Program-made: the position numbers and the translations under genes
In this document: positions 36,940 to 53,570 of the stretch, piece by piece
Position numbering within the stretch: the first letter of the stretch is position 1
Layout of the letters: each line of letters opens with the position of its first letter
The notes under the pieces: model-generated
The model's database searches: none
The model's input: the letters and a program-made list of their open reading frames with translations, nothing else
Told to the model about the DNA's origin: nothing
Assembly: GCA_965221125.1 (NCBI GenBank)
Contig: CBDCRW010000006.1
Coordinates: forward strand, 736,001-800,000
Length of the DNA: 64,000 nt
Reading direction: 5' to 3'
Source: Alphaproteobacteria bacterium
GTDB lineage: Bacteria > Pseudomonadota > Alphaproteobacteria > UBA828

Positions 36940-36954
36940 TGGTGACCCCTACGG
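36940..36954. repeat. att core: copy of the tRNA-Glu 3' end
   Basis: TGGTGACCCCTACGG identical to 53496-53510. Confidence 0.92.
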
Positions 36955-37095
36955 TAACCATTCCAAGACTGCGTAAGACCGTATTGTACTTCTAACACTT
37001 TGTAATACCGTATAAACGTCGAGACGATGCGTCTCGGGTTGTCTTATTCTGTCGCATAGGTTATTACTTGAAAAGTCATAACTGGAGTCGCCGCC

Positions 37096-38283
37096 ATGGG
37101 TACGGAATGGAAGCCGGGACAGAAAAAGCCGGGAAGGCCCAAGACGCTTAGCGCCGCATTCGTTCGGACTGTAACCGCACCGGGGCGGTATGGCGACGGC
37201 CGGGGCGGGCACGGCCTGTCCCTGCTAGTCAAGCCCATGCGCAACGGCCGCACGTCGCGCTCGTGGGCACAGCGCATCATCATCAACGGCAAGGTGGCCA
37301 ACATTGGTCTCGGCGCCTATCCGGTGTTGGGCTTGGCCGACGCACGGGCCAAGGCGCTGGCCAATGCGCGGGAGGTTGCGGCCGGGCGCGACCCGCGCGG
37401 CAGTGGCATCCCCACCTTTGCCGAGGCGTCCGAGAAAGTCATCAAGCTGCATGAGCCGAAGTGGAAGAACGGCACGCGCACCGCTGCAACGTGGCGCCAG
37501 TCACTCAAGGACCATGCCGGACCGCAGTTAGGCAAGCGCCGGGTAGACGAGATTACCGTGGCGCATGTGCTGGCCGCGCTCACACCAATCTGGCACGAGA
37601 AACGCGAGGTCAGCCGCAAGGTGCGGCAACGCATTTCAACGGTGATGAAATGGGCCGTGGCGCAAGGTTACCGGCAGGATGACCCGGCCGGGCCGGCCAT
37701 CAACGCAGCCCTGCCACGCGGCGCCACCAATGGCAAGCATCACCGCGCGCTGCCCTACCGGGATGTGGCCCCGGCACTGGCAACCGTGGACGCCTCGGGC
37801 GCATGGGATGCAACCAAGCTGTGCATCCGCATGGTGGCGCTGACTGCCGTGCGCAGCATCGAGGCGCGGGGCGCCACGTGGGATGAGTTCGACCTGGAGG
37901 CGCGCGAGTGGCGCATACCTGCCAGCCGCATGAAAACCGGCATCGAGCACCGCGTGCCATTGAGCGCTGCGACCATGCAAGTGCTTGAGCAGGCCAAGGC
38001 GGCATACGGCGGCGACGGCCTTGTGTTCCCTGCGCAAAGCGGCCGGCCGTTGTCCGACAACACCCTGTCCAAGCTGTTCCGCACGAACGGCATCAACAGC
38101 ACCATCCACGGGCTGCGCTCCTCATTTCGCGACTGGTGCGCCGAAACGGGCCAGCCTCGCGAGATCGCCGAGGCGGCTCTGGCGCACATGGTAGGGGGTG
38201 TTGAAGGCGCCTATTTTCGCTCGGATTTGTTCGATCGCCGCCGTAAATTGATGCAGGAATGGGCCGACTACTTGAACACTTGA
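37096..38283 (+). CDS. P4-like tyrosine integrase, intact
   Basis: GRYGDG..GLSL arm domain, GLGAYP, LTAVRSIE, HRVPLS, IHGLRSSFRDW, LAH, AYFRSD. Confidence 0.95.
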   Translation: MGTEWKPGQKKPGRPKTLSAAFVRTVTAPGRYGDGRGGHGLSLLVKPMRNGRTSRSWAQRIIINGKVANIGLGAYPVLGLADARAKALANAREVAAGRDPRGSGIPTFAEASEKVIKLHEPKWKNGTRTAATWRQSLKDHAGPQLGKRRVDEITVAHVLAALTPIWHEKREVSRKVRQRISTVMKWAVAQGYRQDDPAGPAINAALPRGATNGKHHRALPYRDVAPALATVDASGAWDATKLCIRMVALTAVRSIEARGATWDEFDLEAREWRIPASRMKTGIEHRVPLSAATMQVLEQAKAAYGGDGLVFPAQSGRPLSDNTLSKLFRTNGINSTIHGLRSSFRDWCAETGQPREIAEAALAHMVGGVEGAYFRSDLFDRRRKLMQEWADYLNT

Positions 38284-38423
38284 CCGTCAAAAGACCGCAT
38301 TGTAAATTACAAGACGATCACGTTATCTCCTGGCCGGGGTGGAGACTCTAAGCCCGGCGACCTCCCGAGACGGGAGACCGACGCGCCCGAGATGGGCAAA
38401 ATCCCCGTCCACCAAGGGAGGTC

Positions 38424-38618
38424 ATGATGACCCAGCCCGCACCGCAGTTTCTCCGCCTGCCGCAAGTCATGGCGCGCATCGGCTTGAGCAAGCCGAGCAT
38501 CTACAGGTTGATGAAGGCCGGCCAGTTCCCGAAGCCCGTGAAGCTCGGCAGTCGCGCATCCGGCTGGCGCGTTGACGAGTTGGACGAGTGGGCCAAGTCG
38601 CGCCCCCGTGCAGCCTGA
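38424..38618 (+). CDS. alpA: AlpA-family regulator/excisionase
   Basis: FLRLPQV..RIGLSKPSIYRLMKAGQFPKPVKLGSRASGW. Confidence 0.92.
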   Translation: MMTQPAPQFLRLPQVMARIGLSKPSIYRLMKAGQFPKPVKLGSRASGWRVDELDEWAKSRPRAA

Positions 38619-38620
38619 CC

Positions 38621-40474
38621 ATGCCGGGCGCCTTGGAGGCGCTGGCCGAGGCTGGCGCGCATTTCGTTCTGTGCAGGACGGACAAGCGGCCCCGAACGAA
38701 AGCTTGGCAGAAGACCCCGGCGGCGCTCGAAGCGGCCCGGCGGCACGAGGGGCCGGTCGGAGTGGTGCCAGCCTCGCTCGGCTGCATCGTGGTGGACGTG
38801 GACCAGGGGGGCGAGGCGGCGGTCGATGGCGTGATAAGGGCGCTCGGCCAGCCGCTGGCCCGCGTTCCCACGCGGCGCGAAGGTGGCGAGCACCTTTGGT
38901 ATCAGTGCCGCGACGCCGAAGAGGTCGGAAACCGCGCGTGGCGGCACGGCGACATTCGCGGCGGCCGGGGCTATGTGATCCTGTGGGACGCGGAGAGCGT
39001 CGCTGAGGGACTGGCCGACACCTCGCGCCCCTTGGCCGACCTCAACCTTGCGGACCTTGCCCAGCTCCCGCCCAAGGCGAACGGCGGGGTGGAGGGAGAG
39101 CGCAACGATACACTGAATCGGCGCGTCTATCTGGCCACGCGCAACGGCGCGCCCATCGAGCCGCACGTGGCGGCCGCGCGTGAGGCCGGGCTATCGGAGC
39201 GAGAGATTCAGGCCACGGCCGAGAGCGCCAAGAAGGCTGCTAAGCGCGACGGCGCGCGGGTGTTCATTGAGAATGCTCGCACCCCGGCCGGCCTCGCGGC
39301 GGCGTTCGACGCGGCAGGCGTCGGACTGCGGCTCAACTCTCGGGCCAAGCGCTACGAGTACCGGATCGACGGCGTCTGGGTGAATGCCCGCGACGAGGAA
39401 AGTGCGGATTTGTGCCGGACGCTATTCCCGAACACATGCAGCGCCAAGAAAGGGGAGAGCGTAGGCCCGCTGACGTATGGCAAGGACCTCTTCCTTGAGC
39501 TGCGTGCCGCGTTGGGAAGCCGGCGGGAGGTGGACCCGTTCCTGGCATGGGTGGAGGCGTTGCCCGAGTGGGACGGCCATCCTCGCATCGACAGCCTGCT
39601 AACGGCCATGTTCGGTGCCGAGGACGACGAGCTGTCCAGGTGGGGCGGCCGCTACATCAGCCTCGGCGCGATCCAGCGCGCCTATGAGCCGGGGTGCAAG
39701 CTCGACGAAATACCTGTGCTTCTCGGCGCCCAAGGGTGCGGTAAATCAGCCTTCGTCCGTGAATGGTTCACCGACGACCAGCACGAGTGGCACGGCGACG
39801 GCCTAGACCTTTCCGCCAAGGCAAAGGAACAAGCTGAACAAATGGCCGGCCGGGTGGTGGTCGAGTTGAGCGAGCTGGCCGGCATGCGCCGCGCCGAAAT
39901 CGAGCGCCTCAAATCTTTCATCACGCGCCGCGACGACGGCCAGTTCCGCTGGGCGTACAAAAGAGCCACCGAGACAAGTCCAAGGCGCTGCGTGCTCGTG
40001 GGCACGACGAACGACGGCGCCTGTCTCCCCGACGATCCTTCTGGCAACCGGCGCTTCGTCGTTGTCGAACTGCGGCATGGCTGTGATGTTCAAGCGGCCG
40101 CGTCCGAACGGGAGCAATGGTGGGCCGAGGCGCTGGCCCGTTACCGGCAGGGCGAGCGGGCCAACCTGCCTCGTGAGCTAATGCCCAAGGCGGCCGAGAG
40201 GGCGGAAGAGCACCGCGCGAGCGACGCCATGGAGGATGAAGTGCGGGAGGCGTTGGCCTGCTTGACCGACAAAAGTCCGGAGGGATTTACGATGAGCGAC
40301 TTGCACCAGGAAGTGGCCGGGGTGGGGTCGAGACCCGCAAGCAAGCTCGACCAGATGCGCTACGCGAGGGCGCTGCAACATCTCAAGTTTTCCAAGCAAC
40401 GAGTGCGGCGCGGCGGCGAGCGATTGATGCTGTGGGTCGGGCCACCCCCGCCGGTGCAGGAGGAGCCATTTTGA
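38621..40474 (+). CDS. Primase-polymerase-like N-terminus fused to VapE/VirE-type helicase
   Basis: IVVDVD, GGEHLWY, DIRGGRGYVI, GERNDTL; C-terminal LLGAQGCGKS, ELSEL, GTTND, GNRRF. Confidence 0.85.
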   Translation: MPGALEALAEAGAHFVLCRTDKRPRTKAWQKTPAALEAARRHEGPVGVVPASLGCIVVDVDQGGEAAVDGVIRALGQPLARVPTRREGGEHLWYQCRDAEEVGNRAWRHGDIRGGRGYVILWDAESVAEGLADTSRPLADLNLADLAQLPPKANGGVEGERNDTLNRRVYLATRNGAPIEPHVAAAREAGLSEREIQATAESAKKAAKRDGARVFIENARTPAGLAAAFDAAGVGLRLNSRAKRYEYRIDGVWVNARDEESADLCRTLFPNTCSAKKGESVGPLTYGKDLFLELRAALGSRREVDPFLAWVEALPEWDGHPRIDSLLTAMFGAEDDELSRWGGRYISLGAIQRAYEPGCKLDEIPVLLGAQGCGKSAFVREWFTDDQHEWHGDGLDLSAKAKEQAEQMAGRVVVELSELAGMRRAEIERLKSFITRRDDGQFRWAYKRATETSPRRCVLVGTTNDGACLPDDPSGNRRFVVVELRHGCDVQAAASEREQWWAEALARYRQGERANLPRELMPKAAERAEEHRASDAMEDEVREALACLTDKSPEGFTMSDLHQEVAGVGSRPASKLDQMRYARALQHLKFSKQRVRRGGERLMLWVGPPPPVQEEPF

Positions 40475-40480
40475 GGCTTC

Positions 40481-40571: not shown

Positions 40572-40612
40572 CGGCGCGTTCAACTGGCACAACAGAGGAA
40601 GGAGAACGAGGC

Positions 40613-41050: not shown

Positions 41051-41916
41051 CGTACGAGAGGGGGCGTTATGCTATGCACCTAACGCATGACATGCCCCCT
41101 TTATGGCACCGCCGGCCCGCTCTAAGGGGGCGTCCAGCGTCGGCGGTTCCTGTTGAGTGCACATCGATGAGGCAAAATAGGCCGAATTCGGCCCCTTCAG
41201 CCATACCAAAGGTGCATGGCGCATGACCGATTTGCGGCGCTTCCAGCGGGATTTCATTCGCGCCGCAATGGCGCCGGGGGTGGATACGGCCGCGTTATCC
41301 ATCCCGCGCGGCAACGGCAAGAGCTTCCTGGCGGCGCACCTCCTAACGCGCGTGATGACCGAAATAGACCCGTTATTCACGCCCGGAACTGAGAGTGTTT
41401 TGTGCGCGGCTTCTATCGAACAAGCGCGAATTGTTTTCAGATTCATGCGCGCTGCGCTGGAGCACGACGATAGCTATAAGCTGGTGGACAGCGCCAACCG
41501 TATCGGGGTGGTTCACAAGCCGACGAATACGCGCTTGCGCATCATCGGCTCAAGCGGGCGCACTGCAATGGGTCTGGTCAATACCCCTTGGGCGGTGTGC
41601 GATGAGCCCGGCAGTTGGGAAACGCTCGGCGGGCAGTTGATGCACGACGCCATACAGACGGCGCAGGGTAAGCCCGGCTCGCCGTTGAGAGCGGTTTATA
41701 TCGGCACTCTGGCGCCGGCTATGAGCGGCTGGTGGCACGATATGATCGCGGATGGCACCCGCGCCACAACCTACGTCCAAGCGCTCCAAGGCGACCCCGA
41801 GCGGTGGGACAACTGGCATGAGATACGGCGATGCAACCCGCTGGTCTCGGTGTCGCCCGAGTTTCGCCGCAAGCTGCTACAGGAGCGGGACGACGCGCGG
41901 CGGGATAGCCGCTTAA

Positions 41917-43529
41917 CCCGACCTATTCATGGACTGCCTTGCACTTGATGCTCGGTTGATTGGGCGCGTCGGGGCCTGACGCGGTTTGGCGTCGGGAACT
42001 GAGGATGGTCGTTATCGGGTTGATGGTTTATGGAGCCTGGGTGATTGGGGCACGCCGCCCCGTCGCTCATGGGCCTGCTGCGGCGAGGCGGCCTGCGAGC
42101 AGGCGGAAGAGGGCGGCGTCGGGGCAGGCCGAGGCGAAGTGGATGCGGATGCGGGTGGCCTTCTCGATGACGCGGGCACCGATCTTGAGGAGGCGCAGCC
42201 TGAGGGTTGCAAACTCTGCACGGGCGAGCGGCGCGGCGCGGGGAATGGCGTCGCGCAGCGCGAGCATGAGCCAGTAGGCTGCGGTGTGGAGGACCAGCCT
42301 GAGCTGATTGGCGAGCGGGCTCTGGCAGGAGGTGCGGTCCGAGGCGAGCTGGCCCTTGTGCATCTTGATCAGGTTCTCGGCCTGGCCGCGGGCGCAGTAG
42401 ATGTCTTCGTAGAGATGGCGGGGCTCGCCCTTGAGTGAGGTGACGACATAGCGGGCATCGAAGCCGCGGGTGCTCGCCTCGAGCCGGGCGACGACCCGGC
42501 GTTCGCAGCTCCAGGAGCGGGCGGCGTAGTCGAAGGCGGTGAAGCTGCGCATCCTGTCTGCGCCGGCCTTGGCGCGGCGCACCTTGAGATCGTCGGCCAT
42601 CTCGTATGCGAGCGCGTGCAGCGCGCGGTTGCCCGCGAGGCCGAAGATGTAGTCGACCCCGTTCTCCTCGCACCAGGCCATGGCTTCCGGGCGGCCGTAG
42701 TGGCTGTCTCCGCGGAAGACGATCCGGGTGTGCGGCCAGTGGCGGCGGATGCGGCGGACCAGATGCTTGATGAGGGTGCGGACCTCAGGGCCCGACGGCG
42801 TCTTGCCCGGGCGCAGGAGGACCGCCACCGGCTTGCCGCTTTCCACATGGTAGACGTGGACGGGCAGGAAGCAGCGCGTGTCGTAATGAGCGTTGAAGAG
42901 CGAGAGCTGCTGGTGGCCGTGCACCGCATCGCAGGTGTCGTCGATGTCAAGGGTTATGGCGGCGGGAGGGGCTTGGAAGCTGCGGCAGAAGAGATCGACC
43001 AGCGCCGCCGTCATGCGCGCCACCTCGATACGAGACGGCGCGTTCTCCAGGCGGCTCATGGTCGGCTGGGAGCAGAGTGCGCGGCCGCTCTCCGGCGCCT
43101 TGCCTGAGGCCAGCTTGAACAGAGGGTCCGCGCGCAGCGCGTCGCAGTCGTCGGCATCTTCGTAGCCACACGCAATGGCGAACATGCGGAAGCGCAGCAT
43201 GGCCGAGAGCGAGTGGATCACCTGCGCCTGCTTGCGCCGGTCGCGGATGCAGCCGGCCAGGGTCTCGGCCAGGCGCAAGCTGCGTTCCGCCTCACGAAGC
43301 AGGACGAGGCCGCCGTCAGACGAGATCAGGCCGCCGTCGAAGGCGGCGCTCACCTTCTTGCGTTGGACGCTTGGCAGATCGAAGGGAAGAAGACTATCGT
43401 CGGTCATGGCGGGCGTGGCATTTTCGTTGTTCGGAGAGGAAGACGCCTCGGCAACGAATTCCTACCCGATGGCAACGACTTACGCTACGTCCGCCACCCC
43501 AAAACCAGACCTGCCATGAATAATTCGGG
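41917..43529 (-). mobile_element. IS1380-family insertion sequence
   Basis: 16-bp IRs CCCGACCTATTCATGG / CCCGAATTATTCATGG; TTAA duplication at 41913-41916 and 43530-43533. Confidence 0.93.
42067..43407 (-). CDS. IS1380 transposase
   Basis: FDGGLISSDGG, GYEDADD, SQPTMSRLEN, LDIDDT, RGDSHY, YCARGQAEN. Confidence 0.94.
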   Translation of the reverse strand: MTDDSLLPFDLPSVQRKKVSAAFDGGLISSDGGLVLLREAERSLRLAETLAGCIRDRRKQAQVIHSLSAMLRFRMFAIACGYEDADDCDALRADPLFKLASGKAPESGRALCSQPTMSRLENAPSRIEVARMTAALVDLFCRSFQAPPAAITLDIDDTCDAVHGHQQLSLFNAHYDTRCFLPVHVYHVESGKPVAVLLRPGKTPSGPEVRTLIKHLVRRIRRHWPHTRIVFRGDSHYGRPEAMAWCEENGVDYIFGLAGNRALHALAYEMADDLKVRRAKAGADRMRSFTAFDYAARSWSCERRVVARLEASTRGFDARYVVTSLKGEPRHLYEDIYCARGQAENLIKMHKGQLASDRTSCQSPLANQLRLVLHTAAYWLMLALRDAIPRAAPLARAEFATLRLRLLKIGARVIEKATRIRIHFASACPDAALFRLLAGRLAAAGP

Positions 43530-44355
43530 TTAAAGGCGCGGTTTCTGAGCTACCGCTTGAACGTGCCGAGCGGTGATGAGAGCACTATGTTGCTGACGGT
43601 GGACGACTGGGAGCGGGTGTGCGAACGGCCGGTGCCGCCGCGCGAGGGCCGGCCTTTGTTCGCCTACGATCTCGGGGGTGGAAGAGCGTGGTCGGCAGGC
43701 GTGGCGTTGTGGCGCAACGGTCGGGTGGAGGCGCTGGCACTGGCGCCCGGCATCCCTAGCCTTGCCGAGCAGGAGAAGCGGGATAGGGTGCCGGCTGGAA
43801 CGTATCGCAAGCTGGCACAGAGCGGCGCCCTGCTCGTTGCCGAGAGCTTGCGGGTGCAACCCCCGGCCGCGCTGCATCGCGCCTGCACGGCCGCCTGGGG
43901 GCGCCCAGAGGTGATTCTATGCGACCACTTCCGGGTGAACGACCTGCGCGACTGTGTCAACGGCGCCGAAATCGTGGCCCGTCGCACCCGGTGGAGCGAG
44001 GCGGCCGAGGATATCCGGGCGCTGCGCCAGATGGCAGCCGACGGCCCGCTGTCGTGCGAGCAAGGCAGCCGGGCGCTGTTGACCGCGTCGCTATCGGGGG
44101 CGCTGGTGCTCAACGACGACCAAGGCAACGTCCGGTTGCGGAAGAAAGGCGTAAACAACGAGGCGCGCGATGACGTGGCCGCTGCCCTGGTGCTAGCGGC
44201 GGGTGCCTACAGCCGGTCGCTGAGGACGCCCCGTCAGCGGTGGCGGTACGCAGGCATGGCGGCTTGAGCGGGAATCACCTAAAGATATCCGCGCGCACAG
44301 GTCTCGAGTCCGGTGGCGCTGTGAGGTGAACATGTCGCAAGGTAAGCCTTAGAGT

Positions 44356-45045
44356 ATGAAGCGTCTTACGAAGATCGGTCTTATCGTTACCGGGGCGTGG
44401 GCACTAGCGTTTGCCATCGTTATCTACTTTCGCGCCGGCGACGCGATCGGGATGGATTTGAATGAGTGGGGTGACTTTCTCGCAGGAGCGTTCGCCCCAT
44501 TGGCTCTGTTCTGGCTGGTAATTGGTTACTTCCAGCACGGACAAGAATTGCGACTCAATACAAAGGCACTGAAGACGCAAGAGGAAGAATTACGTCGGCA
44601 GGCAAAGGAAACAGCGCGCCTTGTAGACGCAACTCAGGAGGAGCTCGGGTTCATGCAAGAGCGCGAGCGGCGGGAAGCTATGCCCGATCTCGTACCCACG
44701 GGAGGAGGGGCGAGAACGTCAGACGGGGCATTGGTGACTGATTTGCAGAACCGTGGCGCAGAAGTGCGCGATATTGTGGTTATCTGTGAAGAATCGTACG
44801 GTCTCACCTTTAGTCCGTCCAAGATTTGGGAGCCGAATAAGATTGGACATCTTATATTACGTCATACAGAACACCCGTCACCAGACTACCCAATTTTGTT
44901 TAGCATAGAATGCGTCGACCTAGTCGGATACTTACATACTATCAATTGCGAACTCCTTGGAGACAATATGGTTCAAATACTCGGACATACTTCTAAAAAT
45001 CTGACAATGGCGGAATTAGATGAGGTCAGAGAGACTGTAGGTTGA
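44356..45045 (+). CDS. Membrane-anchored accessory (cargo) protein
   Basis: Two N-terminal TM segments, LNEWGDFLAG..APLA..WLV, coiled coil; visibly AT-richer than flanks. Confidence 0.75.
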   Translation: MKRLTKIGLIVTGAWALAFAIVIYFRAGDAIGMDLNEWGDFLAGAFAPLALFWLVIGYFQHGQELRLNTKALKTQEEELRRQAKETARLVDATQEELGFMQERERREAMPDLVPTGGGARTSDGALVTDLQNRGAEVRDIVVICEESYGLTFSPSKIWEPNKIGHLILRHTEHPSPDYPILFSIECVDLVGYLHTINCELLGDNMVQILGHTSKNLTMAELDEVRETVG

Positions 45046-45326
45046 GCCACCACCACACCCGCCTAGACCCGCGCCGCTCGCAGCGCGTGCGCCGCGCGGC
45101 GTTCCGCCGAGATGGCTACCGCTGCCGCCAGTGCGGCCGGGCCGGCCGGCTGGAGTGCGACCACATTGTGCCGCTTGACCGGGGTGGGGCGCCGTATGAC
45201 TTGGCCAACCTGCAAACGCTGTGCCGGGGGTGCCACATTGAGAAAACGGCGGGGGAGAACCGGCACCAGCCAAGCCCCGAGCAACAGGCTTGGCGGGAAT
45301 ACCTTGCGTGCATGACCAGAATGTAA
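45042..45326 (+). CDS. HNH endonuclease (packaging-associated, HK97 gp74-like)
   Basis: RDGYRCRQCG, DHIVP, NLQTLCRGCH. Confidence 0.9.
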   Translation: MSHHHTRLDPRRSQRVRRAAFRRDGYRCRQCGRAGRLECDHIVPLDRGGAPYDLANLQTLCRGCHIEKTAGENRHQPSPEQQAWREYLACMTRM

Positions 45327-47097
45327 TACCAATACAGTTGGGTTGGTGCCGCCTGTTGGCTCCGGTCGCAGCAACCCAAGACTCGGGCGAGACGCCCACC
45401 GACTCGGCCGTGATGGCCTCCCCCTTCAACGCAACAAGGGAGGCCTCCGGCCGTGACCCCTGCACAAAGGAGACTTCGCGAATTGCGCGAGCGCCAATCG
45501 CGCGAGCGTGGCCGCATGGCCGAGCTTGGCATGGTCGATGCGCTGACCGACGAACAGCGCTCCGAACTCGACGCCATCGAAGCCGGCACGCCTGACCTGG
45601 AGCGCCAGATCAGGGCCGCCACCATCGCGGTCGATCAGGAAGATGCCGAGTAGCACACAGAGACCCGGACGCACGAGCCGGACGCCGAGCAGCGCGAGCG
45701 GATCGAACTGCGCAGCAAGGCGAGCCTGACCGAGTACCTGTTGGCGGCAGCACAAGGCCGGATGGTGGCCGGCGCGGAGGCGGAGCTACAGGCGGCTGCC
45801 GGCGTCAAAGGCATCCCCATTGAACTGTGGGACGTGCCAGAGACCCGTAACCGAGGCGACGGCCGCGAGACCCGTGCCATCACCGAGGCGCCCGGCACGG
45901 TCGGCGTCAACCTCGACCCCATCCGCCCCGCCGTCTTCGCCAACAGCATCGCGGCCCGGCTTGGCATCGACATGCCCAGGGTGGCAAGTGGCACCTATGC
46001 GACAGCGACCATCACCACGTCGCAGACTGCGGAGGCCAAGGCGAAGAGTGCTGCCATCGCCGCGACGGCGGGCGCCTTCACCCTCAGCACGGCGACGCCG
46101 AAGCGGGTGAGCGCGCGACTGGAACTCACGCTCGAGGACATCGCAGCCGTGGGGCAGGCCAACTTCGAGAGCATTCTCCGCGAGAACCTGTCGCTCGCGT
46201 TGTCCGATGAACTGGACGATCAGGCGATCAACGGCGCTGGCCAGAACAATGATCTCAACGGAATGTTCAAGGCGCTCACCGACCCGTCCGCACCGGCGGC
46301 GGGGGTGGCGAGCTTCGACACCTTCGTTGCCGCTTTCGCGGGTGGTATCGACGGTCTTTGGGCGAACACCGTCGGCGATGTGGCCATCGTCGCGGGGGTG
46401 GATACCTACCAGCTGTCTGCGAAGGTGTTCCGAGATGTGGGCACGAACAACGGCCATCGCGGCGACATCAGCTTTGCCGACTACGCCAAGGAACACTTCG
46501 GCGGCTTCTGGACGAATAAGAGGATGCCGGCGAAGGCGAACCATATCCAGCAGGCCATCCTGTACCGGAAGGGCCGGTCCATGATGGGCGGGGGCGGGGC
46601 GATGCGCACCGCCGTTTGCCCGCATTGGGGCGAGGTGTCCATTGATGACATCTACAGCGGCTCCGCGAAGGCGGAGCGCTACGTGACCATGCTGTTGTTT
46701 CGCACGTTATTTGACGCCGAATCTCCCAGATTATTTGACGTGATCGCTGCCCTGATTTCCCAGATTGCTCGGTCTTTTCCGGATCGAAGCGTAGGAGCTC
46801 ATGGTCTCTGCGGGCGGTCCGGGGTCGCTGTCTGATTGAGGTTTGGACTGGTGCTTGAGGAGAGCTGACGAGGTGTCGCGCGGCCGTCGGCGCGTCAAGC
46901 GGCTGCGCCGCTCCTGCGCTTCGCTTCGGCCCTTCGGGTGACTCGCCACCGTCCACACGACGAAGTGCTGCCATGGCCTGAAGCAAGCTTCCGGCCACGG
47001 ACTGGCCGCTCACCTGACGTAGTATCCCGGTGGAGGCGCAGCGCCTTCCGGACCGTTGGGGAAGGGTGGTTCCCGACGGCGGTTCCGGCTCGAACCC

Positions 47098-48138
47098 CTA
47101 GGCGTTGGCGGAACCGGGCTCCGGGAACCGCGGGGCCTGCGGCCGACTGCTGCCGTTGGCGGCGGCGGCCGCCGCCCGCTTGTCCGCTGCGCCTGCGACG
47201 ACGCTGTAGCCGCCCTCGGCGTTGCGCGCGACGCGACCCTCCTGGACGAGCTTTTGCAAGATTACGCCGACGGTCTTGTGCCGGGTCGCGGCGCGTTCCC
47301 GGATCTGGCGTTGCGAGAGCGGCGCCCCGGCGTCGGCGAGCGCCTTGAGAACGCGGCATTCGGGTGTTTCGGGCTGAGGCGCCCCGCCGCCGGCCGTGGG
47401 CGGCTGGCGCAGCCGGAAGGAGGGCTCCTCTCCGTCTTCCTTGAGCTCGATCTCGATGTCGTCGAGACCGCGTGCGGCGCGATGCTCGACGGTCATGAGG
47501 GTCTGCCGGTCCCGGCGGCGCAGGTAGAGGTTCGAGTCCCCCCAGGCGTGCAGCTCACTGCTGCCCCGCAGGGCCTGCCCCGGCCTCGTGGCCCCGCTCT
47601 TGCGGGCGTGGTGGACGAGGAGGACGGCGGTCTCGAAGCGGCGTTGCAGGTCGCGCAGGAAGCCGAGGATCGGGGCGACGTCCGCAACCGTGTTCTCGTC
47701 CACGCCGTGCAGGCGGACCAGGGGGTCGAGGACCACGAGGCGCGGTGCGATGCGCTCCACGGTCTGCTGCAGGCGGCGGCGGTCGTCGAGATGGTCGAGG
47801 CGCAGTGTGGGCACGTCGATGACGGCGATGTCGAGGGTCTCGAAGCGGGCGCCTGCGGCGCGGGCGATCCCCTGCAGGCGCTTGCGCACGAGGTGGCCGG
47901 CGTCTTCTGCGGCGAACAGCAGGACCGGGCCAGGCCGGGCCGGGGCGAAGTGCCGCAGGCATGGGACGCCGGCGGCGACTGCGACCGCGAGGTCCAGCGC
48001 CAGGATGGACTTGCCGCACTTCGGCTCGCCGCCGACGATGCCGACGGCCTGCTCGCCCCATAGCGTGTCCACCAGCCATTGCTGCTCGCGCGGCCGCTCC
48101 TCCAGCTCGATCGGGGCGCGGGTCGGGAAGCCGGTCAT
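47098..48138 (-). CDS. AAA_25 (RepA/RecA-like) ATPase with C-terminal winged-helix-like region
   Basis: WLVDTLW, GGEPKCGKS, AAED, LVVLDPL, LLVHHARK, LRGSS; ATGA overlap with the ExeA-like gene. Confidence 0.85.
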   Translation of the reverse strand: MTGFPTRAPIELEERPREQQWLVDTLWGEQAVGIVGGEPKCGKSILALDLAVAVAAGVPCLRHFAPARPGPVLLFAAEDAGHLVRKRLQGIARAAGARFETLDIAVIDVPTLRLDHLDDRRRLQQTVERIAPRLVVLDPLVRLHGVDENTVADVAPILGFLRDLQRRFETAVLLVHHARKSGATRPGQALRGSSELHAWGDSNLYLRRRDRQTLMTVEHRAARGLDDIEIELKEDGEEPSFRLRQPPTAGGGAPQPETPECRVLKALADAGAPLSQRQIRERAATRHKTVGVILQKLVQEGRVARNAEGGYSVVAGAADKRAAAAAANGSSRPQAPRFPEPGSANA

Positions 48139-48935
48139 GGCCGCAGTTCCTCGAGCGCGTGCTGCAGGTGGTCGGCACTGACGGTCCTCGCCTCGTCGAG
48201 AGCGGCGGCGGAGAGCGCGTAGTGGGCGATGCGGTTGATCTGGCGCGGCAGGCCGCGCGCGCCCTGGAACAGGGCCTCGACGGCGGGCTCTTCGAACAGC
48301 GGCAGTTCGCATCCCGCGAGCCTGAGGCGGTGCTTGATGTAAGCGTCGACCTCGTCGCGGTCGAGACCGCTCAGGTGGTGGCGGACGACGAGGCGCTGGC
48401 TGAGGGATTCGTGCATGGCCATGGCCAGGCGGCGCCTGAGCTCGGTCAGACCGACGAGGACGAGGCACAGGCGCTGCTCTGCATCCATGGCGAAGTTGGT
48501 GAGCAGGCGCAGGTCCTCAAGGACGTCGTTGCGCAGATGATGGGCCTCGTCGATGACGAGGACCGGCAGCTGCTTGGCCTCGGTGACGAGGCGGGAGATC
48601 TCGTTTCGGATGGCCTGATAGGCCGAGGCGCGGGAGCGCTCGATGGGCAGGCCGATCTCCCACGCGATCGCCTTGTACATGTCGAGCACGTTGCCCGTGG
48701 TCAGCGAGACGTAGTGGACCCGGTAGAGGCCTGGATGAAGCTGCGCGGTCAGATGCCGGCACACGGTGGTCTTGCCGGAGCCCACCTCGCCGGTGAGCAG
48801 GCCGATGCCGCGCAGGTCGATGAGGTGGCCGAGCCTGGCCTCGGCCTCGCGGCGCGCGTTGGACTCGAACAGCTCGTCGGTCTCTGCCGGGGTCTCGAAG
48901 GGCAGGCGGGTGAAGGCGAAGTGGCGCAGGTACAT
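48135..48935 (-). CDS. ExeA/GspA-like AAA ATPase (transposition regulator)
   Basis: YLRHFAFTRLPF, TGEVGSGKTT, LVIDEAH, GLPRQIN. Confidence 0.9.
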   Translation of the reverse strand: MYLRHFAFTRLPFETPAETDELFESNARREAEARLGHLIDLRGIGLLTGEVGSGKTTVCRHLTAQLHPGLYRVHYVSLTTGNVLDMYKAIAWEIGLPIERSRASAYQAIRNEISRLVTEAKQLPVLVIDEAHHLRNDVLEDLRLLTNFAMDAEQRLCLVLVGLTELRRRLAMAMHESLSQRLVVRHHLSGLDRDEVDAYIKHRLRLAGCELPLFEEPAVEALFQGARGLPRQINRIAHYALSAAALDEARTVSADHLQHALEELRP

Positions 48936-50263
48936 CACTCGTCCTCCTTCTTGTCCTTGAGGTTGCGCATGGCCAGCGGCGAGGGCGGAGGCTCGGGCGC
49001 CGGATCTTCGGCCTCGATCTCCCTGGCCGGGTAGGTGCGCCTGACGGCGGTATTGGCGTAGGCGTCGAGAGGGCTGGCCTTGCCGGCCGGCTTGCCGTCA
49101 TGGACCACGTCGAGAGGGCGCGAGGGCGGCGCGGCCGGGTCGTAGCGCAGGATGACGTTCTGACCCACCAGGAGGGCGTCGACCTCGTAGACGCGGCCGT
49201 TCAGACTAACGGTGCGGTCCTTGTAGACACGGCGCCTGGCCTCGAAGAGGAACAGATCGTCGAGGTCCATGGTGGCGTCGGGATAGCGCACGCCGGCCGA
49301 GGCCAGCGCCCACTGCTCAAGCGGGGTGCGCCCCTCGTCGAGGCCACGATGCGGGCTGTTGTGATACTCCCCCTCGATCCAGGCCCAGAGGCTGCGGTTG
49401 AGCGCCTCCAGGCTGTCGACGTCATCGCCGAGGTGGCGGAGCCAGCCGGCCCGGAGGGTGCGGAAGAAGCGCTCGATCTTACCCTTTCCCGCTGGCTGGA
49501 ACGCCCTTGCGTGAATCAACGCAACGCCGAGCCTGGCGCAGACCAGGGAGAGATGACGGGAGCGGTAGGCGCTTCCGTTGTCGACGTACAAGCGGGCCGG
49601 GAGGCCGCGCCGGATCAGCGCGTCCTTGAACACCGGCAGGAACGCCGCAGTGTTCTCCGCCATGGCGAAGGCGGCGAACGGGATGACGCGGGTGGCGTCG
49701 TCGATGAAGGCGATCAGGTAGGTCTTGCGCCGGGTTCGGCCGTGCCGGACCTTGGGTCCGTGCATGACGTCGCTCATCCACATCTCGCCGGCATGCCGGA
49801 AGGCGAAGCGGCGGCGATCCGCCCCGTCGGGCGGCTTCTTGTCGAACAGGCCCTCGCGGCTGAAGAGGCGGTGCACGGTGGACGAGGCGAGCGGGTGGTC
49901 GATACCCTCCTCCTTGACCTTCTGGATGATGGCGCGAACCGACAATGCGTCGTTCTCGGTCTTCAGCGCGATGAGGCGCTCGGCGACCTCGGGCGGCAGC
50001 CGCCGGGGCTTCCCCCGGTCGGTGCGGGGCTTGGGGTAGAGCGCGTCGAAGCCGCCGTAGCGGTAGTCCTTGATCCAGCGCCGCATGGTCTCGGCGGCGA
50101 CCCGGGTCCTGGTGGTTCCGGGGATCGTGTAGGTCTTCTCGGCTTTGGCGCGCATCATCGCGCCGGCACCCGGTGCACCCACGGGCAGATGCACCAGATC
50201 GGCGATGACGTCGTATCGGAAGAGCGCGATCTGTTGGCGAAGGTCGTCGTCTGAGCTGTTCAT
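48935..50263 (-). CDS. DDE transposase (rve core, Mu-type C-terminus)
   Basis: WMSD, FIDDATR, LYVDNGSAY, GKGKIERFF, RRVYKDRTVSLNG. Confidence 0.92.
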   Translation of the reverse strand: MNSSDDDLRQQIALFRYDVIADLVHLPVGAPGAGAMMRAKAEKTYTIPGTTRTRVAAETMRRWIKDYRYGGFDALYPKPRTDRGKPRRLPPEVAERLIALKTENDALSVRAIIQKVKEEGIDHPLASSTVHRLFSREGLFDKKPPDGADRRRFAFRHAGEMWMSDVMHGPKVRHGRTRRKTYLIAFIDDATRVIPFAAFAMAENTAAFLPVFKDALIRRGLPARLYVDNGSAYRSRHLSLVCARLGVALIHARAFQPAGKGKIERFFRTLRAGWLRHLGDDVDSLEALNRSLWAWIEGEYHNSPHRGLDEGRTPLEQWALASAGVRYPDATMDLDDLFLFEARRRVYKDRTVSLNGRVYEVDALLVGQNVILRYDPAAPPSRPLDVVHDGKPAGKASPLDAYANTAVRRTYPAREIEAEDPAPEPPPSPLAMRNLKDKKEDE

Positions 50264-50308
50264 GGTGCGATCCTCGTTCAGGGACTCCCTGGCCCCGGGA
50301 TCGTCACG

Positions 50309-50944
50309 CTACGAACTCTCCGGCGGCGGGTCCGGCCCCGCCCGTTGTTGGAACTGCGGTTTGCGATTCCCCACGTCGATGCCGTGGGGTTGGAAGCCCA
50401 GAGGCGCGGGTAGCGTCCGGAGCTGCCCGGCGACCAGGCCGCGCAGTTCCATCAACGCGCTGTCGCTCTTCAGACGCTCGCGCACCGCGCTCATGGTGGG
50501 CGCGCAGCCCGCGAGCAGGTCGGGGATCAGGCCGATGACGCGCACAAGCGCGTCGTGCACAAGCTTCAGCCTGCGGCGGATCCAACGCACGGCGCCGGGA
50601 AGCTCGATGGCGTCCTCGTCCTCGGGGCAGCGCACCTCGTCCGCTGCCTCCTCCAGGCTGCCGGCCTCCTCCGCCACGACAACAACCGCTTCCAGCGCAT
50701 CGAGCGTGCCCGGCAGCCGCGCCGCCAGACAGTCGGCCAGCAGGCCGATGGTCGTATGGCTCTCACGGCAATACCAGCGAGGAACCCTTGCGCCGGGCGG
50801 GGTCTTCCGCTCGTAGGTGCCGTGGCTTGCCACAGAACATCCGCCGTGCGGGTGATTCGGGCAGCGCTCAAGCCTTGCGTCGCGCCACGCCTCGGTCTTA
50901 ACGTATTCCTCGCTGGTGAGCCCCGTTTCGTAGCGAAGCTGCAC
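50309..50944 (-). CDS. First ORF of the transposon, Cys/His putative Zn-binding protein
   Basis: CPNH...C..HGTYER...RWYC...T..LL.DCL..R; resembles DUF6431-like leaders by inference. Confidence 0.65.
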   Translation of the reverse strand: MQLRYETGLTSEEYVKTEAWRDARLERCPNHPHGGCSVASHGTYERKTPPGARVPRWYCRESHTTIGLLADCLAARLPGTLDALEAVVVVAEEAGSLEEAADEVRCPEDEDAIELPGAVRWIRRRLKLVHDALVRVIGLIPDLLAGCAPTMSAVRERLKSDSALMELRGLVAGQLRTLPAPLGFQPHGIDVGNRKPQFQQRAGPDPPPESS

Positions 50945-51033
50945 CGGCCCTGGCCCGGCGGGAGTTCCGTCCCCCGGGCCTCTCTTTGTCGTTCAGTGAG
51001 AGGCCAAGATTACGGACGCTCCCCGCCGCCGCC

Positions 51034-51167
51034 AAGCTGTGGAGCCGTGGACGCGTCCTGCGGACCGATCGGCGTCCTGCGGACCGTGTGGACAGCCCGT
51101 GGACAAGCTGGCGCTTGCCCACCGCCTGACCACACTCGCCGATCTCGCGCCCACCGCTCCACAGCTT
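51034..51167. other. Long nested hairpin in the transposon leader
   Basis: AAGCTGTGGAGC/GCTCCACAGCTT, GTGGACGCG/CGCGCCCAC, GTGTGGACAG/CTGACCACAC, GTGGACAAGC/GCTTGCCCAC. Confidence 0.7.
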
Positions 51168-51413
51168 CAACAGCAATGAGGATTCTGCTGAGGATCAAAA
51201 AAATGCCGCAGGCAGCGTCCTTCCCGCACTCGGCCACCATCCCGGGAAATCCACCAACCAATCAAAGTGAGAAAAAAACCCGTGCTTCTATCCGGCTAGA
51301 CCGGAAAACAACACATGCACGTCTTACTTGGTGACGTGATCCTCGTTCAGCCCGACGCCTACGCCCAGGTGGCATTCCGCGTCTCGACCTAAGCGGGCGC
51401 CCAGGGGGCGACC

Positions 51414-51986
51414 ATGGCCGAGTATCCGATCTTCGACGGGGCGCTGGAGCTGCGGCGCTCCGGAGGCGCCCGCACGCTCCACGGCCGTTTCAACTACGGC
51501 AGCACGGCGACTACCCGTGACCGGGGCCGAGTGCGGAAGGAGCGGTTTCAACCCCGCGCCTTTCGCTACGCCATCGACCAGGATCCAGAGCGACGCGTCG
51601 ACCTTCTGGTCGGACACGACTACGGGAAGCCGCTCGCGAGCCGGCAGGCGGGCACGCTCGACATCGCTGACGGCGACGACGCGGTGACGTTCACGGCGCG
51701 CCTGCCCGAAGACCCGCCGACATGGGTCCGCGATGCCGAGCTTGCCATCGCAGCCGGCTTGATGGTTGGGCTTAGCCCCGGCTTCACCGTGCCGCCGACA
51801 TCGGTGGTGCCGGACGCGGAGGTGCTTGAGGACGAGCCGGGCAACCCCGGCGTCCAGGTGCGCGTCATTCGCGAGGCGGTGCTGCGAGAGTTCAGCGTGG
51901 TGACATCGCCCGCCTACACGGACGCGGCGGTCGACATCCGGTCGGACCTTCTCACACCCCCTCGGAGGCGCCGGCTATGGCTGTAG
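51414..51986 (+). CDS. HK97-type prohead protease
   Basis: ERFQPRAF, LLVGHD, GLSPGF, LREFSVVTSPAY. Confidence 0.9.
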   Translation: MAEYPIFDGALELRRSGGARTLHGRFNYGSTATTRDRGRVRKERFQPRAFRYAIDQDPERRVDLLVGHDYGKPLASRQAGTLDIADGDDAVTFTARLPEDPPTWVRDAELAIAAGLMVGLSPGFTVPPTSVVPDAEVLEDEPGNPGVQVRVIREAVLREFSVVTSPAYTDAAVDIRSDLLTPPRRRRLWL

Positions 51987-52333
51987 CAACGTTGTCGCCG
52001 TGGCCTACCACACCGGCTGCGCTCACGGCCGCGACGGCGTGCCTGAAAGCCGCCCTCGGCGAGGATGACGATGCGACAGCGCAGCGGCTCGGCGCATCCG
52101 CCGCTGCGCTGGTAGAGCGCTACGCGCCGGATGCGCCGCATCCCGTCAAGAACGAAGCGGTGATCCGTTGCGCGGGGTGGCTGCTCGGGGCGCCATCTAA
52201 CGGAGTGCGTCAAGAGGCGGTCGGGCCGCTGAGTGTGGAATACGCGCCTTCGATGTTTTCTGCCCTGCGTCATAGCGGCGCGATGGCGCTGCTCTCGCCG
52301 TTCAAGGTGCGGCGTGCGGGAGCCATTGGCTAA
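51977..52333 (+). CDS. Putative head-tail connector (gp6-like)
   Basis: CLKAALG.DDD...LVERY...AVIRCAGWL...ALLSPFK pattern; position in the head module. Confidence 0.65.
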   Translation: MAVATLSPWPTTPAALTAATACLKAALGEDDDATAQRLGASAAALVERYAPDAPHPVKNEAVIRCAGWLLGAPSNGVRQEAVGPLSVEYAPSMFSALRHSGAMALLSPFKVRRAGAIG

Positions 52334-53397
52334 TGCGTTGGCCTTGGCAGAAGCGAGAGACGCGGGACAGCGGCGGTGACTTCGCCGATGCCGTTGTGCG
52401 GCTGATCGAAGCACGGGCTGCCGGCACGGCTGCGGACGCATCGAGCACGGCGGCGGTCGAGGCGGCAGCGGGAGCGCTGTCTCGCGCGTTTGCGAGTGCC
52501 GAGGTGGTCGCGGAGGCTTGGGTTGCCGAGACCGTCACGCCGGCCGTGCTCGCGCAGATAGGGCGCGACCTGGTGCGCGACGGCGATAGCCTCCACGTCA
52601 TCCGCATGGGCGCGGACGGGGTGGCGAAGCTGATCCCGTGTTCCTCCTGGCATTGGGAGGGTTCGCACGACCCGGCCAGCTGGACCGTGCGAGCGACAGC
52701 CTACGGGCCGTCAACGTCCACGACTTGGAACTTGCCTGTCTCGTCCGTCGTCTTCGTCCGCTGGGGCGGCACACCGGGGCAGCCCTACATAGGGACATCG
52801 CCGCTGTCCTGGGCGCATACGACGGCGCGGCTACAGTCCGAGGCCGAGCGCAGTCTTGCGGACGAGGCCGGCGGGCCGGTCGCCCAGCTGCTCGCCGTGC
52901 CGCAGGACGGCGGTGACGGTGGCGAGGGAGACCCGCTCGCGACCCTCAAAGGCGACCTGGCCGGCGCGCGCGGTAAGGCGCTCCTTATCGAGACCGTGGC
53001 AGCAGCATGGGGCGAAGGCCGGACAGCGGCGCCGCAGCGAGACTGGATTGCGTCTCGCCTCGGGCCAGCGCCGCCGGACGCAATGGTGAAGGTGGCCGAT
53101 GCCGCGTTCGCGCGCGTGCTCGCCGCGTGCGGAGCGTCGCCAAGCCTATTCACTGACGCCGATGGCACGTCGCAGCGGGAGGCGTTGCGGCGCTGGCACC
53201 TTGGCACGGTGCTACCGCTGGCCAAGCTGCTCGAGCACGAGCTGTCGGCGAAGTTTGAAACGCCGGTGCGGCTCACCTTTGACAGCTACCCGAAGGACAT
53301 GGTTTCAAGGGCGCAGGTGTTCGCCAAGCTCATCGCGGCCGAAGGCGTGTCGGTTGAGAAGGCGCTAGAGGTCGCGGGGCTGGTGGACGCCGAGTAG
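52333..53397 (+). CDS. Divergent, short HK97-like portal protein
   Basis: AAVEAAAGALSRAFAS, LVRDGDSLHVI, IGTSPL, LAACGASPSL, TVLPLAKLLEHELSAKF match portal motif order. Confidence 0.7.
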   Translation: MRWPWQKRETRDSGGDFADAVVRLIEARAAGTAADASSTAAVEAAAGALSRAFASAEVVAEAWVAETVTPAVLAQIGRDLVRDGDSLHVIRMGADGVAKLIPCSSWHWEGSHDPASWTVRATAYGPSTSTTWNLPVSSVVFVRWGGTPGQPYIGTSPLSWAHTTARLQSEAERSLADEAGGPVAQLLAVPQDGGDGGEGDPLATLKGDLAGARGKALLIETVAAAWGEGRTAAPQRDWIASRLGPAPPDAMVKVADAAFARVLAACGASPSLFTDADGTSQREALRRWHLGTVLPLAKLLEHELSAKFETPVRLTFDSYPKDMVSRAQVFAKLIAAEGVSVEKALEVAGLVDAE

Positions 53398-53430
53398 GCC
53401 TTTTGCTGCGCTGGTGGCCCGTCGTAAACT

Positions 53431-53484
53431 AAGTCATAACTGAAAAAGGCCTGACCACGGTTTCTCTTATTTATCAATGAATTA
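53431..53484. promoter_or_regulatory. Integrase arm-type site and IHF site of the att region
   Basis: AAGTCATAACTG (53431-53442) also at 37073-37084; TATCAATGAATTA (53472-53484) matches IHF consensus WATCAANNNNTTR. Confidence 0.65.
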
Positions 53485-53495
53485 TGTCATAAGAG

Positions 53496-53570
53496 TGGTG
53501 ACCCCTACGGGAATCGAACCCGTGTCTCCACCTTGAAAGAGTGGTGTCCTAACCTCTAGACGAAGGGGTC
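53496..53570 (-). tRNA. tRNA-Glu(TTC)
   Basis: GACCCCTTCGTCTAGAGGTTAGGACACCACTCTTTCAAGGTGGAGACACGGGTTCGATTCCCGTAGGGGTCACCA folds as a cloverleaf; CCA encoded. Confidence 0.97.

Follow-up and report, generated by a model that had tools for sequence, protein, structure and literature searches.

A degenerate, tail-less, capsid-encoding island at an alphaproteobacterial tRNA-Glu gene and its family of probable small satellites

The window analysed here is a stretch of 64,000 nucleotides from the forward strand of an Alphaproteobacteria bacterium genome (GTDB lineage UBA828; GenBank assembly GCA_965221125.1, contig CBDCRW010000006.1, positions 736,001 to 800,000). It contains an island of 16,571 bp at a tRNA-Glu gene, flanked by exact 15-bp attachment (att) repeats and encoding an integrase, a replication protein, packaging enzymes and HK97-type head proteins. 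In our view the island probably belongs, as a degenerate copy, to a smaller and independent line of satellites that form capsids and borrow tails, separate from the described phage-inducible chromosomal islands that form capsids (cf-PICIs). The features of the island and its edges are listed below with the evidence for each in brackets, where ORF stands for open reading frame, IS for insertion sequence, TerL for the large terminase subunit and GC3 for GC content at third codon positions.

36540..36938, plus strand: fused remnant of a second tyrosine integrase, 132 aa, ending 1 nt before attL
36940..36954, plus strand: attL core, 15 bp, exact repeat of the tRNA-Glu 3' end
37074..37084, plus strand: 11-mer AGTCATAACTG, candidate integrase arm site, with its other copy at 53432-53442
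37096..38283, plus strand: tyrosine integrase with arm-binding domain, 395 aa, intact ORF (Pfam)
38424..38618, plus strand: AlpA-type regulator/excisionase, 64 aa (Pfam Phage_AlpA, E 9.5e-19)
38588..40474, plus strand: replication protein with Prim-Pol N-terminus and VapE/D5-type helicase, 628 aa (Pfam, PHROGs)
40535-40861 and 40871-41050, plus strand: two small ORFs, 108 aa and 59 aa, in the slot ahead of TerL (GC3)
41223..41916, plus strand: TerL N-terminal ATPase part, cut by the IS (phrog_9, E 1e-21)
41917..43529, minus strand: IS1380-type IS, 1,613 bp, transposase at 42067-43407 (Pfam DDE_Tnp_1_4, 4.5e-166)
43534..44267, plus strand: TerL C-terminal nuclease part (phrog_9, E 7.3e-9)
44356..45045, plus strand: low-GC cargo ORF in the TerL-HNH slot, 229 aa (phrog_9267, unknown function, 5e-22)
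45042..45326, plus strand: HNH endonuclease of the packaging-associated type, 94 aa (Pfam HNH, 1.4e-11; phrog_589, 4.7e-20)
45453..46692, plus strand: major capsid gene, HK97 type, with N-terminal scaffold-like extension (Pfam Phage_capsid)
46693..51313, minus strand: four-gene transposon, 4,621 bp, in the capsid gene, with a CATGC duplication (Pfam; ends read)
51319..51392, plus strand: last 24 codons of the capsid gene (match to the conserved C-terminus of relatives)
51414..51986, plus strand: prohead serine protease, 190 aa (Pfam Peptidase_S78, 2.3e-15; phrog_80, 8.9e-16)
51977..52333, plus strand: probable head-tail adaptor, 118 aa (PHROG, structure model)
52333..53397, plus strand: portal, 354 aa (Foldseek fold match; PDB profile match)
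53496..53570, minus strand: tRNA-Glu(ttc), whose 3' 15 nt (53496-53510) are attR (ARAGORN)

An earlier note on this DNA, drawn up from the letters alone, had proposed 15-bp att repeats at tRNA-Glu, and these are exact. The 15-mer TGGTGACCCCTACGG has exactly two copies in the window, at 36940-36954 and 53496-53510, against a chance expectation of 0.10, and two matches arose in none of 100 shuffles; the second copy lies in the sole tRNA gene that ARAGORN finds in the 64 kb. Just inside each att site, in the same orientation, is one of exactly two window copies of AGTCATAACTG (chance mean 0.16; two or more copies in 1 of 100 shuffles), which we regard as candidate arm sites for the integrase. The named genes of the element all lie on the plus strand between the att repeats (Pfam, PHROGs), in frames supported by GC3. 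The same note's inventory, running from integrase, AlpA and primase/VapE through TerL, cargo, HNH, capsid and protease to connector and portal, is borne out by Pfam, PHROGs and structure models, and so is its statement that no tail, lysis or repressor gene is recognisable, as no such family is matched by the window ORFs in Pfam or PHROGs.

The note had also reported two insertions. Both are real, but it overlooked an in-frame stop codon in the capsid gene and the integrase remnant at 36540-36938. The IS1380-type element has 16-bp inverted ends and a TTAA target duplication and sits in TerL, while the transposon in the capsid gene encodes a 211-aa protein, a Mu-like DDE transposase, an AAA_22 ATPase and an AAA_25+MarR protein. 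Both interrupted frames are continuous once the insert and one copy of its duplication are skipped: TerL then reads through for 475 aa, and the capsid gene up to 46692 is in frame with 51319-51392. Subtracting the two (16,571 - 1,617 - 4,626) gives 10,328 bp, in line with the roughly 10.3 kb claimed before, and an element of only this length has no room for a tail module.

These insertions are two of three lesions. The third is a TAG at 45654-45656, codon 68 of the capsid gene, in a column that holds Gln in the related loci L044, L046 and L068 (L-numbers denote related loci holding portal relatives) and within a stretch that is uninterrupted in all nine relatives aligned. With the IS in TerL and the TAG and transposon in the capsid gene, the window copy has lost its terminase and its capsid protein and is, as judged from its sequence, non-functional. 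No second portal or Phage_capsid gene exists elsewhere in the genome. Still open are the frames for integrase, AlpA, replicase, protease, adaptor and portal.

Contigs assembled from public sequencing runs break at 41939, 43504, 46720 and 51285, about 25-30 bases inside the ends of the inserts, and their depth relative to the flanks is, by bin, about 4-13 fold over the IS and 14-49 fold over the transposon. This high depth fits the 11 identical copies of the IS transposase and the 20 copies of the transposon's (100% identical) in the genome, and the transposon looks like the product of a recent burst. The same transposon lies inside the relative L030 (9932-13785), and a 94%-identical copy of the IS occupies the TerL-HNH slot of L021 (8516-9856), in another genome of the genus; we considered that these elements target satellites and rejected the idea, as chance insertion is enough for elements present in 20 and 11 copies. 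The transposon's AAA_25 protein is 28-31% identical to replication proteins of four relatives (L029, L033, L049 and L057). Separately, IS21-type elements (IstA/IstB) interrupt or flank L022/L055, L058, L061, L081 and L083, splitting the capsid gene in L061 and TerL in L083, and many copies of the family are decaying.

The remnant upstream of attL has no Pfam match of its own. Its N- and C-terminal parts match, at 44-80% identity (tblastn), the integrases of about 356 aa that follow the portal in L034, L051, L054, L056, L059 and L068. It is probably the leftover of an earlier occupant of the same tRNA-Glu site, which suggests serial occupancy.

In the left arm of the island, the integrase matches Phage_int_M (2.4e-23), Phage_integrase (9e-15) and Arm-DNA-bind_3 (1.3e-10) in Pfam, and the replication protein matches VapE-like (E 7.8e-59) and Prim-Pol (2.5e-8) families in Pfam and helicase/primase families in PHROGs. 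The two small ORFs that follow have GC3 values of 0.83 (108 aa) and 0.80 (59 aa), which suggests that both are coding; neither matches a family in Pfam, PHROGs or PADLOC, and the best score of the 108-aa ORF against the protein Atlas, 0.79, is uninformative. The C-terminal part of TerL is 71% identical to that of L026. Over the cargo ORF the GC content falls to 0.565-0.572 in 1-kb windows starting at 44000 and 44500, compared with 0.65-0.67 in the flanking windows, and this ORF has no PADLOC match.

The head genes could be assigned with differing confidence. The capsid gene scores 30.3 bits against the Phage_capsid cut-off of 24.2 in Pfam, starts with GTG at 45453, preceded by GGGAGG as a ribosome-binding motif, and in both of its pieces aligns collinearly with the single capsid proteins of 425-455 aa in nine relatives. 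The portal reaches 29.2 bits in Pfam, below the cut-off of 39.1, which relatives L033 (54 bits) and L094 (49 bits) pass. Its AlphaFold model, with a mean predicted local distance difference test score (pLDDT) of 68.9, has 103 portal-type Foldseek matches at E <= 1e-3, led by portals of Mycofy1, HFTV1, G20c, HK97, GBSV1 and Rhodobacter gene transfer agent (GTA), with E down to 4.5e-9; the portal family profile matches PDB portal 9i8c at 9.3e-5. The solved portal chains of HK97 and GTA have 346-370 residues, a length comparable to its 354 aa, so that the shortness pointed out in the note is not remarkable.

The 118-aa ORF between protease and portal is a probable head-tail adaptor. It weakly matches phrog_477, 'head-tail adaptor Ad1' (E 0.0018), and when its AlphaFold2 model (pLDDT 76.6) was compared with known structures by VIA-align, adaptor or neck chains made up six of the top seven rows, each covering nearly the whole model (Z 6.7 for Douge, 6.1 for the SaPI1 neck, 6.1 for T1, 5.8 for FCWL1, 5.2 for T5 and 5.2 for SPP1 gp15). 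We say only probable because, as VIA-align itself warns, Z below 8 can reflect a common helical arrangement; Foldseek returned nothing significant for the model (E 0.6 or worse), and a sequence-profile search against the PDB gave no meaningful match. No second neck gene or head-closure gene was recognised in the window. The lack of a recognisable head-closure gene, noted earlier, is a trait of this sub-lineage; many relatives have additional neck genes.

This damaged copy belongs to a large family whose other members define the element. Among 8,000 scored candidates, 1,793 portal relatives were found at E <= 1e-5, the best 120 of which are 72-94% identical to the window portal and 330-384 aa long; a portal match occurs in 14 of 49 genomes of the window's order and in 12 of 20 of its genus. 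A scan of one genome per species contributed 43 loci and IMG/VR seven. After five duplicate records were dropped, the set comprised 59 loci with a portal relative, 47 of which also have TerL and capsid (tblastn). In 43 of these 47 the genes run TerL-(HNH)-capsid-(protease)-(adaptor)-portal on one strand; as the loci are kin, this count describes conservation and does not serve as a statistical test. Four loci depart from this order: HNH follows the portal in L034, L068 is rotated, TerL-HNH is inverted in L075, and the deviation of L092 is a mere rotation because its contig is circular. The head-module order that the earlier note called non-canonical is therefore a family trait, though a less unusual one than was claimed: the run from capsid to protease to portal is shared with described proteobacterial cf-PICIs, and the differences are limited to the leading TerL-HNH pair and the position of the adaptor ahead of the portal.

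As to the ends of the relatives, 20 of 43 loci have a tRNA gene on the opposite strand no more than 2.5 kb beyond the portal. Of 21 loci tested, 11 carry, upstream of the integrase, a direct repeat of the tRNA 3' end (13-46 nt), where by calculation a 13-mer from a 67-nt segment would recur by chance about 0.004 times per 5 kb. Ten of the 11 relatives so delimited measure 9,489-10,737 bp; the remaining, IS-ridden locus is 6.6 kb. The family sits at many different tRNA genes. Three loci (L028, L029 and L033) are bounded by ordinary host genes and have nothing tail-like inside (Pfam on the flanks). When the ORFs other than integrase, TerL, capsid and portal were scanned in seven att-delimited elements, none of the 65 matched a tail tube, tape measure, sheath or baseplate. 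Had these been prophages with deletions, homologous loci might have continued into tail genes; instead they end after the portal at a tRNA or at host genes, with no tail module. These results support a discrete, tail-less, capsid-encoding integrative element rather than a deleted prophage.

Three of the seven IMG/VR contigs (L087, L092 and L094) are element-sized and terminally repeated, and are closed or concatemeric molecules of the family:

L087: 13,632 bp, 55-bp terminal repeat, including a 971-aa Tn3 transposase
L092: 11,731 bp, 99-bp terminal repeat
L094: 9,490 bp, 99-bp terminal repeat

The complete content of L094 is a plasmid-type replicase, three small ORFs, TerL, HNH, capsid, two small proteins, protease, an adaptor-like protein and portal. 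No recognisable integrase was found in any of the three.

Around this conserved core, several modules vary. First, the replication module is swapped freely, with Prim-Pol/VapE in the window and AAA_25, HTH_36/O-like initiators, a topoisomerase-like PHROG family or Replicase elsewhere. Second, there are two integrase types, the window's at the far end from the tRNA and one of about 356 aa after the portal, abutting the tRNA. Third, TerL and HNH overlap by 3 nt in at least 11 of the rows listed and are otherwise separated by an insert of 0.4-1.25 kb with clearly lower GC (8772-9524 in L023, 6251-6805 in L057, 5436-6314 in L059 and 44356-45045 in the window). Cargo in this slot includes PD-T7-4 in one relative (PADLOC 1.2e-78), a SocA/Panacea protein and a DUF4238 protein. 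Finally, the neck varies. The window has the adaptor only, while many relatives have Hc1 (head closure)-like or Neck1-like proteins, and many have a protein of about 160 aa between adaptor and portal (phrog_939, 1e-8) that also weakly matches the E217 collar protein (1.4e-4, below the cut-off). Whole elements are mosaic too: between the window and the Binatia locus L044, capsid (78%) and portal (77%) are far more alike than TerL (41%) and integrase (45%). In a distant sub-family, with portals 32-39% identical, a protein of 500-860 aa that belongs to no known family stands between adaptor and portal (6-2582 in L092, 5835-7784 in L071 and 5750-7261 in L031, with gaps in L089-L091), and several relatives have, between capsid and protease, a small P-loop protein with weak AAA_16/AAA_33 matches (8418-8864 in L044, 6546-7304 in L094 and 5891-6328 in L021) that the window lacks.

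The family is not confined to one class, contrary to the earlier description of it as alphaproteobacterial. The 43 loci come from records titled as members of at least six phyla; the names in the titles are Alphaproteobacteria, Rhodospirillaceae, Micropepsaceae, Gammaproteobacteria, Pseudomonadales, Candidatus Binatia, Gemmatimonadetes, Longimicrobiales, Dehalococcoidia, Acidimicrobiia, Trueperaceae and Candidatus Versatilivoraceae. A quick portal tree places the window in a starred clade of seven rows (three Pseudomonadota, two Binatota and two unlabelled), and the six phylum labels need only six changes, so the lineages are largely phylum-bound after transfer. Between chromosome-scale loci of different phyla, portals are 48-77% and capsids 29-78% identical, values that seem too close for vertical descent since the phyla split.

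What would such an element do? Gene identities, boundaries, lesions and the family-wide conservation of order and size are supported directly. Tail borrowing we infer from the presence of portal and neck proteins, the lack of a tail or lysis module within 10 kb and the precedent of tail piracy by cf-PICIs; the trigger, the capsid size and dependence on a helper are likewise proposals. In the life cycle we envisage, the P4-type tyrosine integrase would insert the element at the 3' end of a tRNA gene, and the AlpA-type regulator would turn on excision and the late operon. The swappable replication module (Prim-Pol/VapE in the window; AAA_25, HTH_36 Rep or plasmid-type replicase in relatives) would copy the circle. 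Procapsids would be assembled from a capsid protein that brings an N-terminal scaffold domain of its own, and the S78 protease would mature them; TerL and the HNH nuclease would cut the DNA and drive one unit-length genome into them by way of the portal. The adaptor, with extra neck proteins in many relatives, would ready the portal vertex for the tail of an unrelated phage, which would also supply lysis. With TerL split, the capsid gene broken and no second copy, the window's own element is unable to run this cycle.

Several observations weigh against this interpretation. For no member of the family has a helper phage, induction, a particle or transfer been observed. In the window's own genome, which is 92% complete, searches with four families in all returned no match to PF10145 (tape-measure), PF04984 (sheath) or PF20441 (TerL_nuclease) and no second match to PF05065 (Phage_capsid), so that no resident helper is visible there. 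Some members may persist as episomes in the manner of plasmids, given the three circular contigs without an integrase. For the adaptor, the scores behind the assignment are moderate (VIA-align Z under 8, Foldseek E no better than 0.6). The small terminase subunit, TerS, which HK97-type packaging normally needs, was not recognised by Pfam, PHROGs or the Atlas in the window or as a conserved gene of the family. All 43 loci are from metagenome-assembled genomes whose taxon labels are the submitters' bin titles; bins may hold foreign contigs, yet seven loci (L044, L052, L064, L066, L071, L074 and L084) lie on contigs of 2-5.8 Mb. No contig of four public runs bridged attP or an empty attB across 36000-54500, nor an IS-free or transposon-free site, and since contigs and not reads were used, the absence of these junctions carries no weight; one apparent joint of 37816 to 53502 had only 25 letters on one side, too short to trust. 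Six other public runs contain just 5-10% of the words sampled from the stretch, and no habitat is proposed.

Further, 'tail-less' here means that there is no tail module, not that every tail-related gene is absent. Ahead of TerL, L048 has a 162-aa protein (3107-3595) that matches 'tail fiber/endolysin' PHROGs and Pfam Dit_like (7.9e-17), and L022 has one (6776-7417) with the PF18352 N-terminal domain (2.2e-18). In the same position, L044 (4450-4887) and L065 (3960-4577) have proteins matching the PHROG 'tail completion or Neck1' (2e-6 and 5e-5). These proteins may fit the head to the tails of certain helpers.

One alternative keeps the satellite and makes it more parasitic than cf-PICIs, needing a helper's TerS, lysis and perhaps activation besides its tail. 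The earlier note was right that no TerS is recognised, and neither in the window nor among the genes that the family conserves could a lysis gene be recognised; what lies ahead of TerL also varies, being in some members a tail- or neck-related protein. Yet a TerS may go unrecognised among the small ORFs that precede TerL or follow the portal, a cluster of which, located behind the portal in 16 loci, is DNA-binding-like at its N-terminus, and cf-PICIs, the closest working analogue, encode their own TerS. We regard this extended dependence as doubtful.

The second alternative, which is the main rival, dispenses with helpers, making the element a self-sufficient, minimal, tail-less capsid-plasmid or virus that spreads by capsid uptake or other delivery, or uses its capsid as a protective container. 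The integrase-less circular contigs, which carry only replicase, head and packaging genes, would be at home in this scheme, as would the lack of a visible resident helper in the window's genome, and the accessible text of one study proposes portal-less small HK97 genomes as satellites or unconventional viruses (PMC13669383). Here, however, the family keeps portal and adaptor, and many members have head-closure or Neck1-type proteins, whose known role is to join tails, while no delivery device or lysis gene was recognised. To our knowledge, all portal-bearing HK97 particles deliver their DNA through a tail. A free-standing element of this kind seems to us improbable.

Finally, the island might be what is left of a temperate HK97-like phage after deletion of the tail and lysis modules. 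This would explain head genes of phage type, a TerL weakly related (27-33% identity) to terminases of HK97-like coliphages and the visible decay of the window copy, but it is already largely refuted, and in our view very unlikely indeed, as dozens of loci, spread over different phyla and tRNA genes, repeat one reduced gene set in one order and at 9.5-10.7 kb, the att repeats lie immediately outside integrase and portal, element-sized circular contigs exist, no locus continues into a tail module, and capsid and portal match no deposited phage.

If the family does consist of tail-borrowing satellites, it has consequences beyond this locus. A broader claim, which we advance tentatively and judge to have somewhat less than an even chance of holding in all its parts together, is that the family is a fourth independently evolved lineage of capsid-forming satellites; that its members are the smallest known DNA elements with a complete portal-bearing HK97 head and packaging motor (9.4-10.7 kb, below the quoted 11.6-kb floor); and that they have moved between at least six phyla, likely on tail-less heads that accept unrelated phages' tails, while variable neck genes and the Dit-like, spike-N-like and Neck1-like proteins of the slot ahead of TerL tune the fit. 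The family is large, occurs in bacteria of several phyla and is apparently undescribed. Members are found in chromosome-scale assemblies titled Binatia, Longimicrobiales, Dehalococcoidia, Acidimicrobiales, Pseudomonadales and Alphaproteobacteria. In the texts available, capsid-forming satellites have so far been documented in Enterobacteriaceae, a few other Proteobacteria and Firmicutes, and a tail-borrowing lifestyle would now extend to environmental bacteria. The family would provide a natural test of whether tail piracy carries DNA across phyla, and a minimal head-and-motor set of about six genes for structural and synthetic work. Its conserved TerL-HNH cargo slot, with PD-T7-4 in one relative, marks these elements as possible carriers of anti-phage genes. 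The window copy itself is a fossil, valuable as a pointer to the family.

The closest known systems are the cf-PICIs. As described in the accessible text of the cf-PICI preprint, these combine int, alpA and rep with capsid, protease, portal, connectors, HNH, TerS and TerL and have no tails; proteobacterial members are ordered capsid-protease-portal-connectors followed by hnh-terS-terL, share 50-90% similarity with EcCIEDL933, and form tail-less capsids that take tails from other phages. We located EcCIEDL933 in the EDL933 chromosome (E. coli O157:H7), where the annotation reads capsid-protease-portal-connectors-hnh-terS-terL. Both it and the window element are integrative, have an int-AlpA-primase left arm, bring head and packaging genes of their own (HK97-type capsid, S78 protease, portal, adaptor, HNH and TerL) with capsid, protease and portal in that sequence, and lack tail and lysis modules. 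By function rather than by SatelliteFinder profiles, eight cf-PICI components are clear in the window and a ninth, the adaptor, is probable; capsid, protease, portal, TerL and HNH are its own, with TerL and capsid broken in this copy, and tail and holin genes are absent from the element. For comparison, the SatelliteFinder cfPICI model, as given in the text available, calls for at least nine of 11 core profiles and forbids tail and holin genes.

The differences are as clear. The window element is 10.3 kb and its family 9.5-10.7 kb, compared with 15.4 kb for EcCIEDL933 and a cf-PICI median of 14 kb in the text available. TerL and HNH lead the operon in the window family and close it in EcCIEDL933, the adaptor comes before the portal in the one and after it in the other, and EcCIEDL933 encodes a P27-type TerS where the window has no recognised TerS or head-closure gene. 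Unlike EcCIEDL933, the family integrates at tRNA genes. Sequence similarity is confined to parts of the element: AlpA is 42% identical to the EcCIEDL933 HTH protein, the protease 26% identical, HNH matches at E 2.5e-4, and the TerL N-terminus is 28% identical (E 1e-3). For capsid and portal there is no tblastn match to EcCIEDL933, with hhalign probabilities of 0.6% and 17.6%, so the separateness from the cf-PICI prototype that the earlier note had proposed is upheld, and the window falls outside the 50-90% packaging-module similarity.

The hosts of the family are also outside those named for cf-PICIs in the main texts of the papers. The main text of the SatelliteFinder paper lists Enterobacteriaceae, Pasteurellaceae, Morganellaceae and a number of Firmicutes families, together with genera including Bordetella, Pseudomonas and Xanthomonas; the word 'Alphaproteobacteria' occurs nowhere in these main texts, as distinct from their supplements. 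The family is not described in the full texts searched, while supplements (for example the host lists of PMC10085698) and preprint tables could contain related elements.

Among phages, TerL is weakly matched. Its N-terminus is 27-33% identical to those of HK97-like coliphages and Butyrivibrio phages, the coliphage match reaching 33% over 155 aa (E 4e-7), whereas capsid and portal have no tblastn match at E <= 1e-3 in 50,697 phage records and are in this sense unlike any deposited phage. With phage HK97 and HK97-like coliphages (HK544, HK75, HK633 and mEpX2) the element shares an HNH-assisted TerL, a portal, an S78 protease and a capsid with fused scaffold domain, and the window portal model matches the HK97 portal fold. 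In HK97-type phages the order is TerS-TerL-portal-protease-capsid, and a full tail module comes next; our element runs TerL-HNH-capsid-protease-adaptor-portal and has no tail.

Two sets of small genomes invite comparison. In the accessible text, Aguilar et al. 2026 describe 'twilight-zone' HK97-fold genomes of less than 11.6 kb, put the smallest tailed-phage and satellite genomes at 11.6 kb and project a capacity of about 10 kb for a T=4 shell (PMC13669383). Their group is described there as having no portal, terminase or connector genes, whereas the window family has all three. Marine virion-encapsidated integrative mobile elements (VEIMEs; Eppley et al. 2022, PMC9618062), as far as the text available describes them, are likewise small and integrative, with int, AlpA and primase, and some occur in Alphaproteobacteria, but they lack the capsid genes of the window family.

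Last, the Rhodobacter capsulatus GTA shares with our element a small HK97-type head in Alphaproteobacteria, and GTA portal chains are matched by the model of the window portal (E 3e-7). A GTA packages host DNA and is encoded by a chromosomal cluster that is fixed in place, includes tail genes and lacks an integrase and att sites. The integrase, the att repeats and the many tRNA genes at which the family sits set the island apart from a GTA; it is, in contrast, mobile, tail-less and sized to carry itself.

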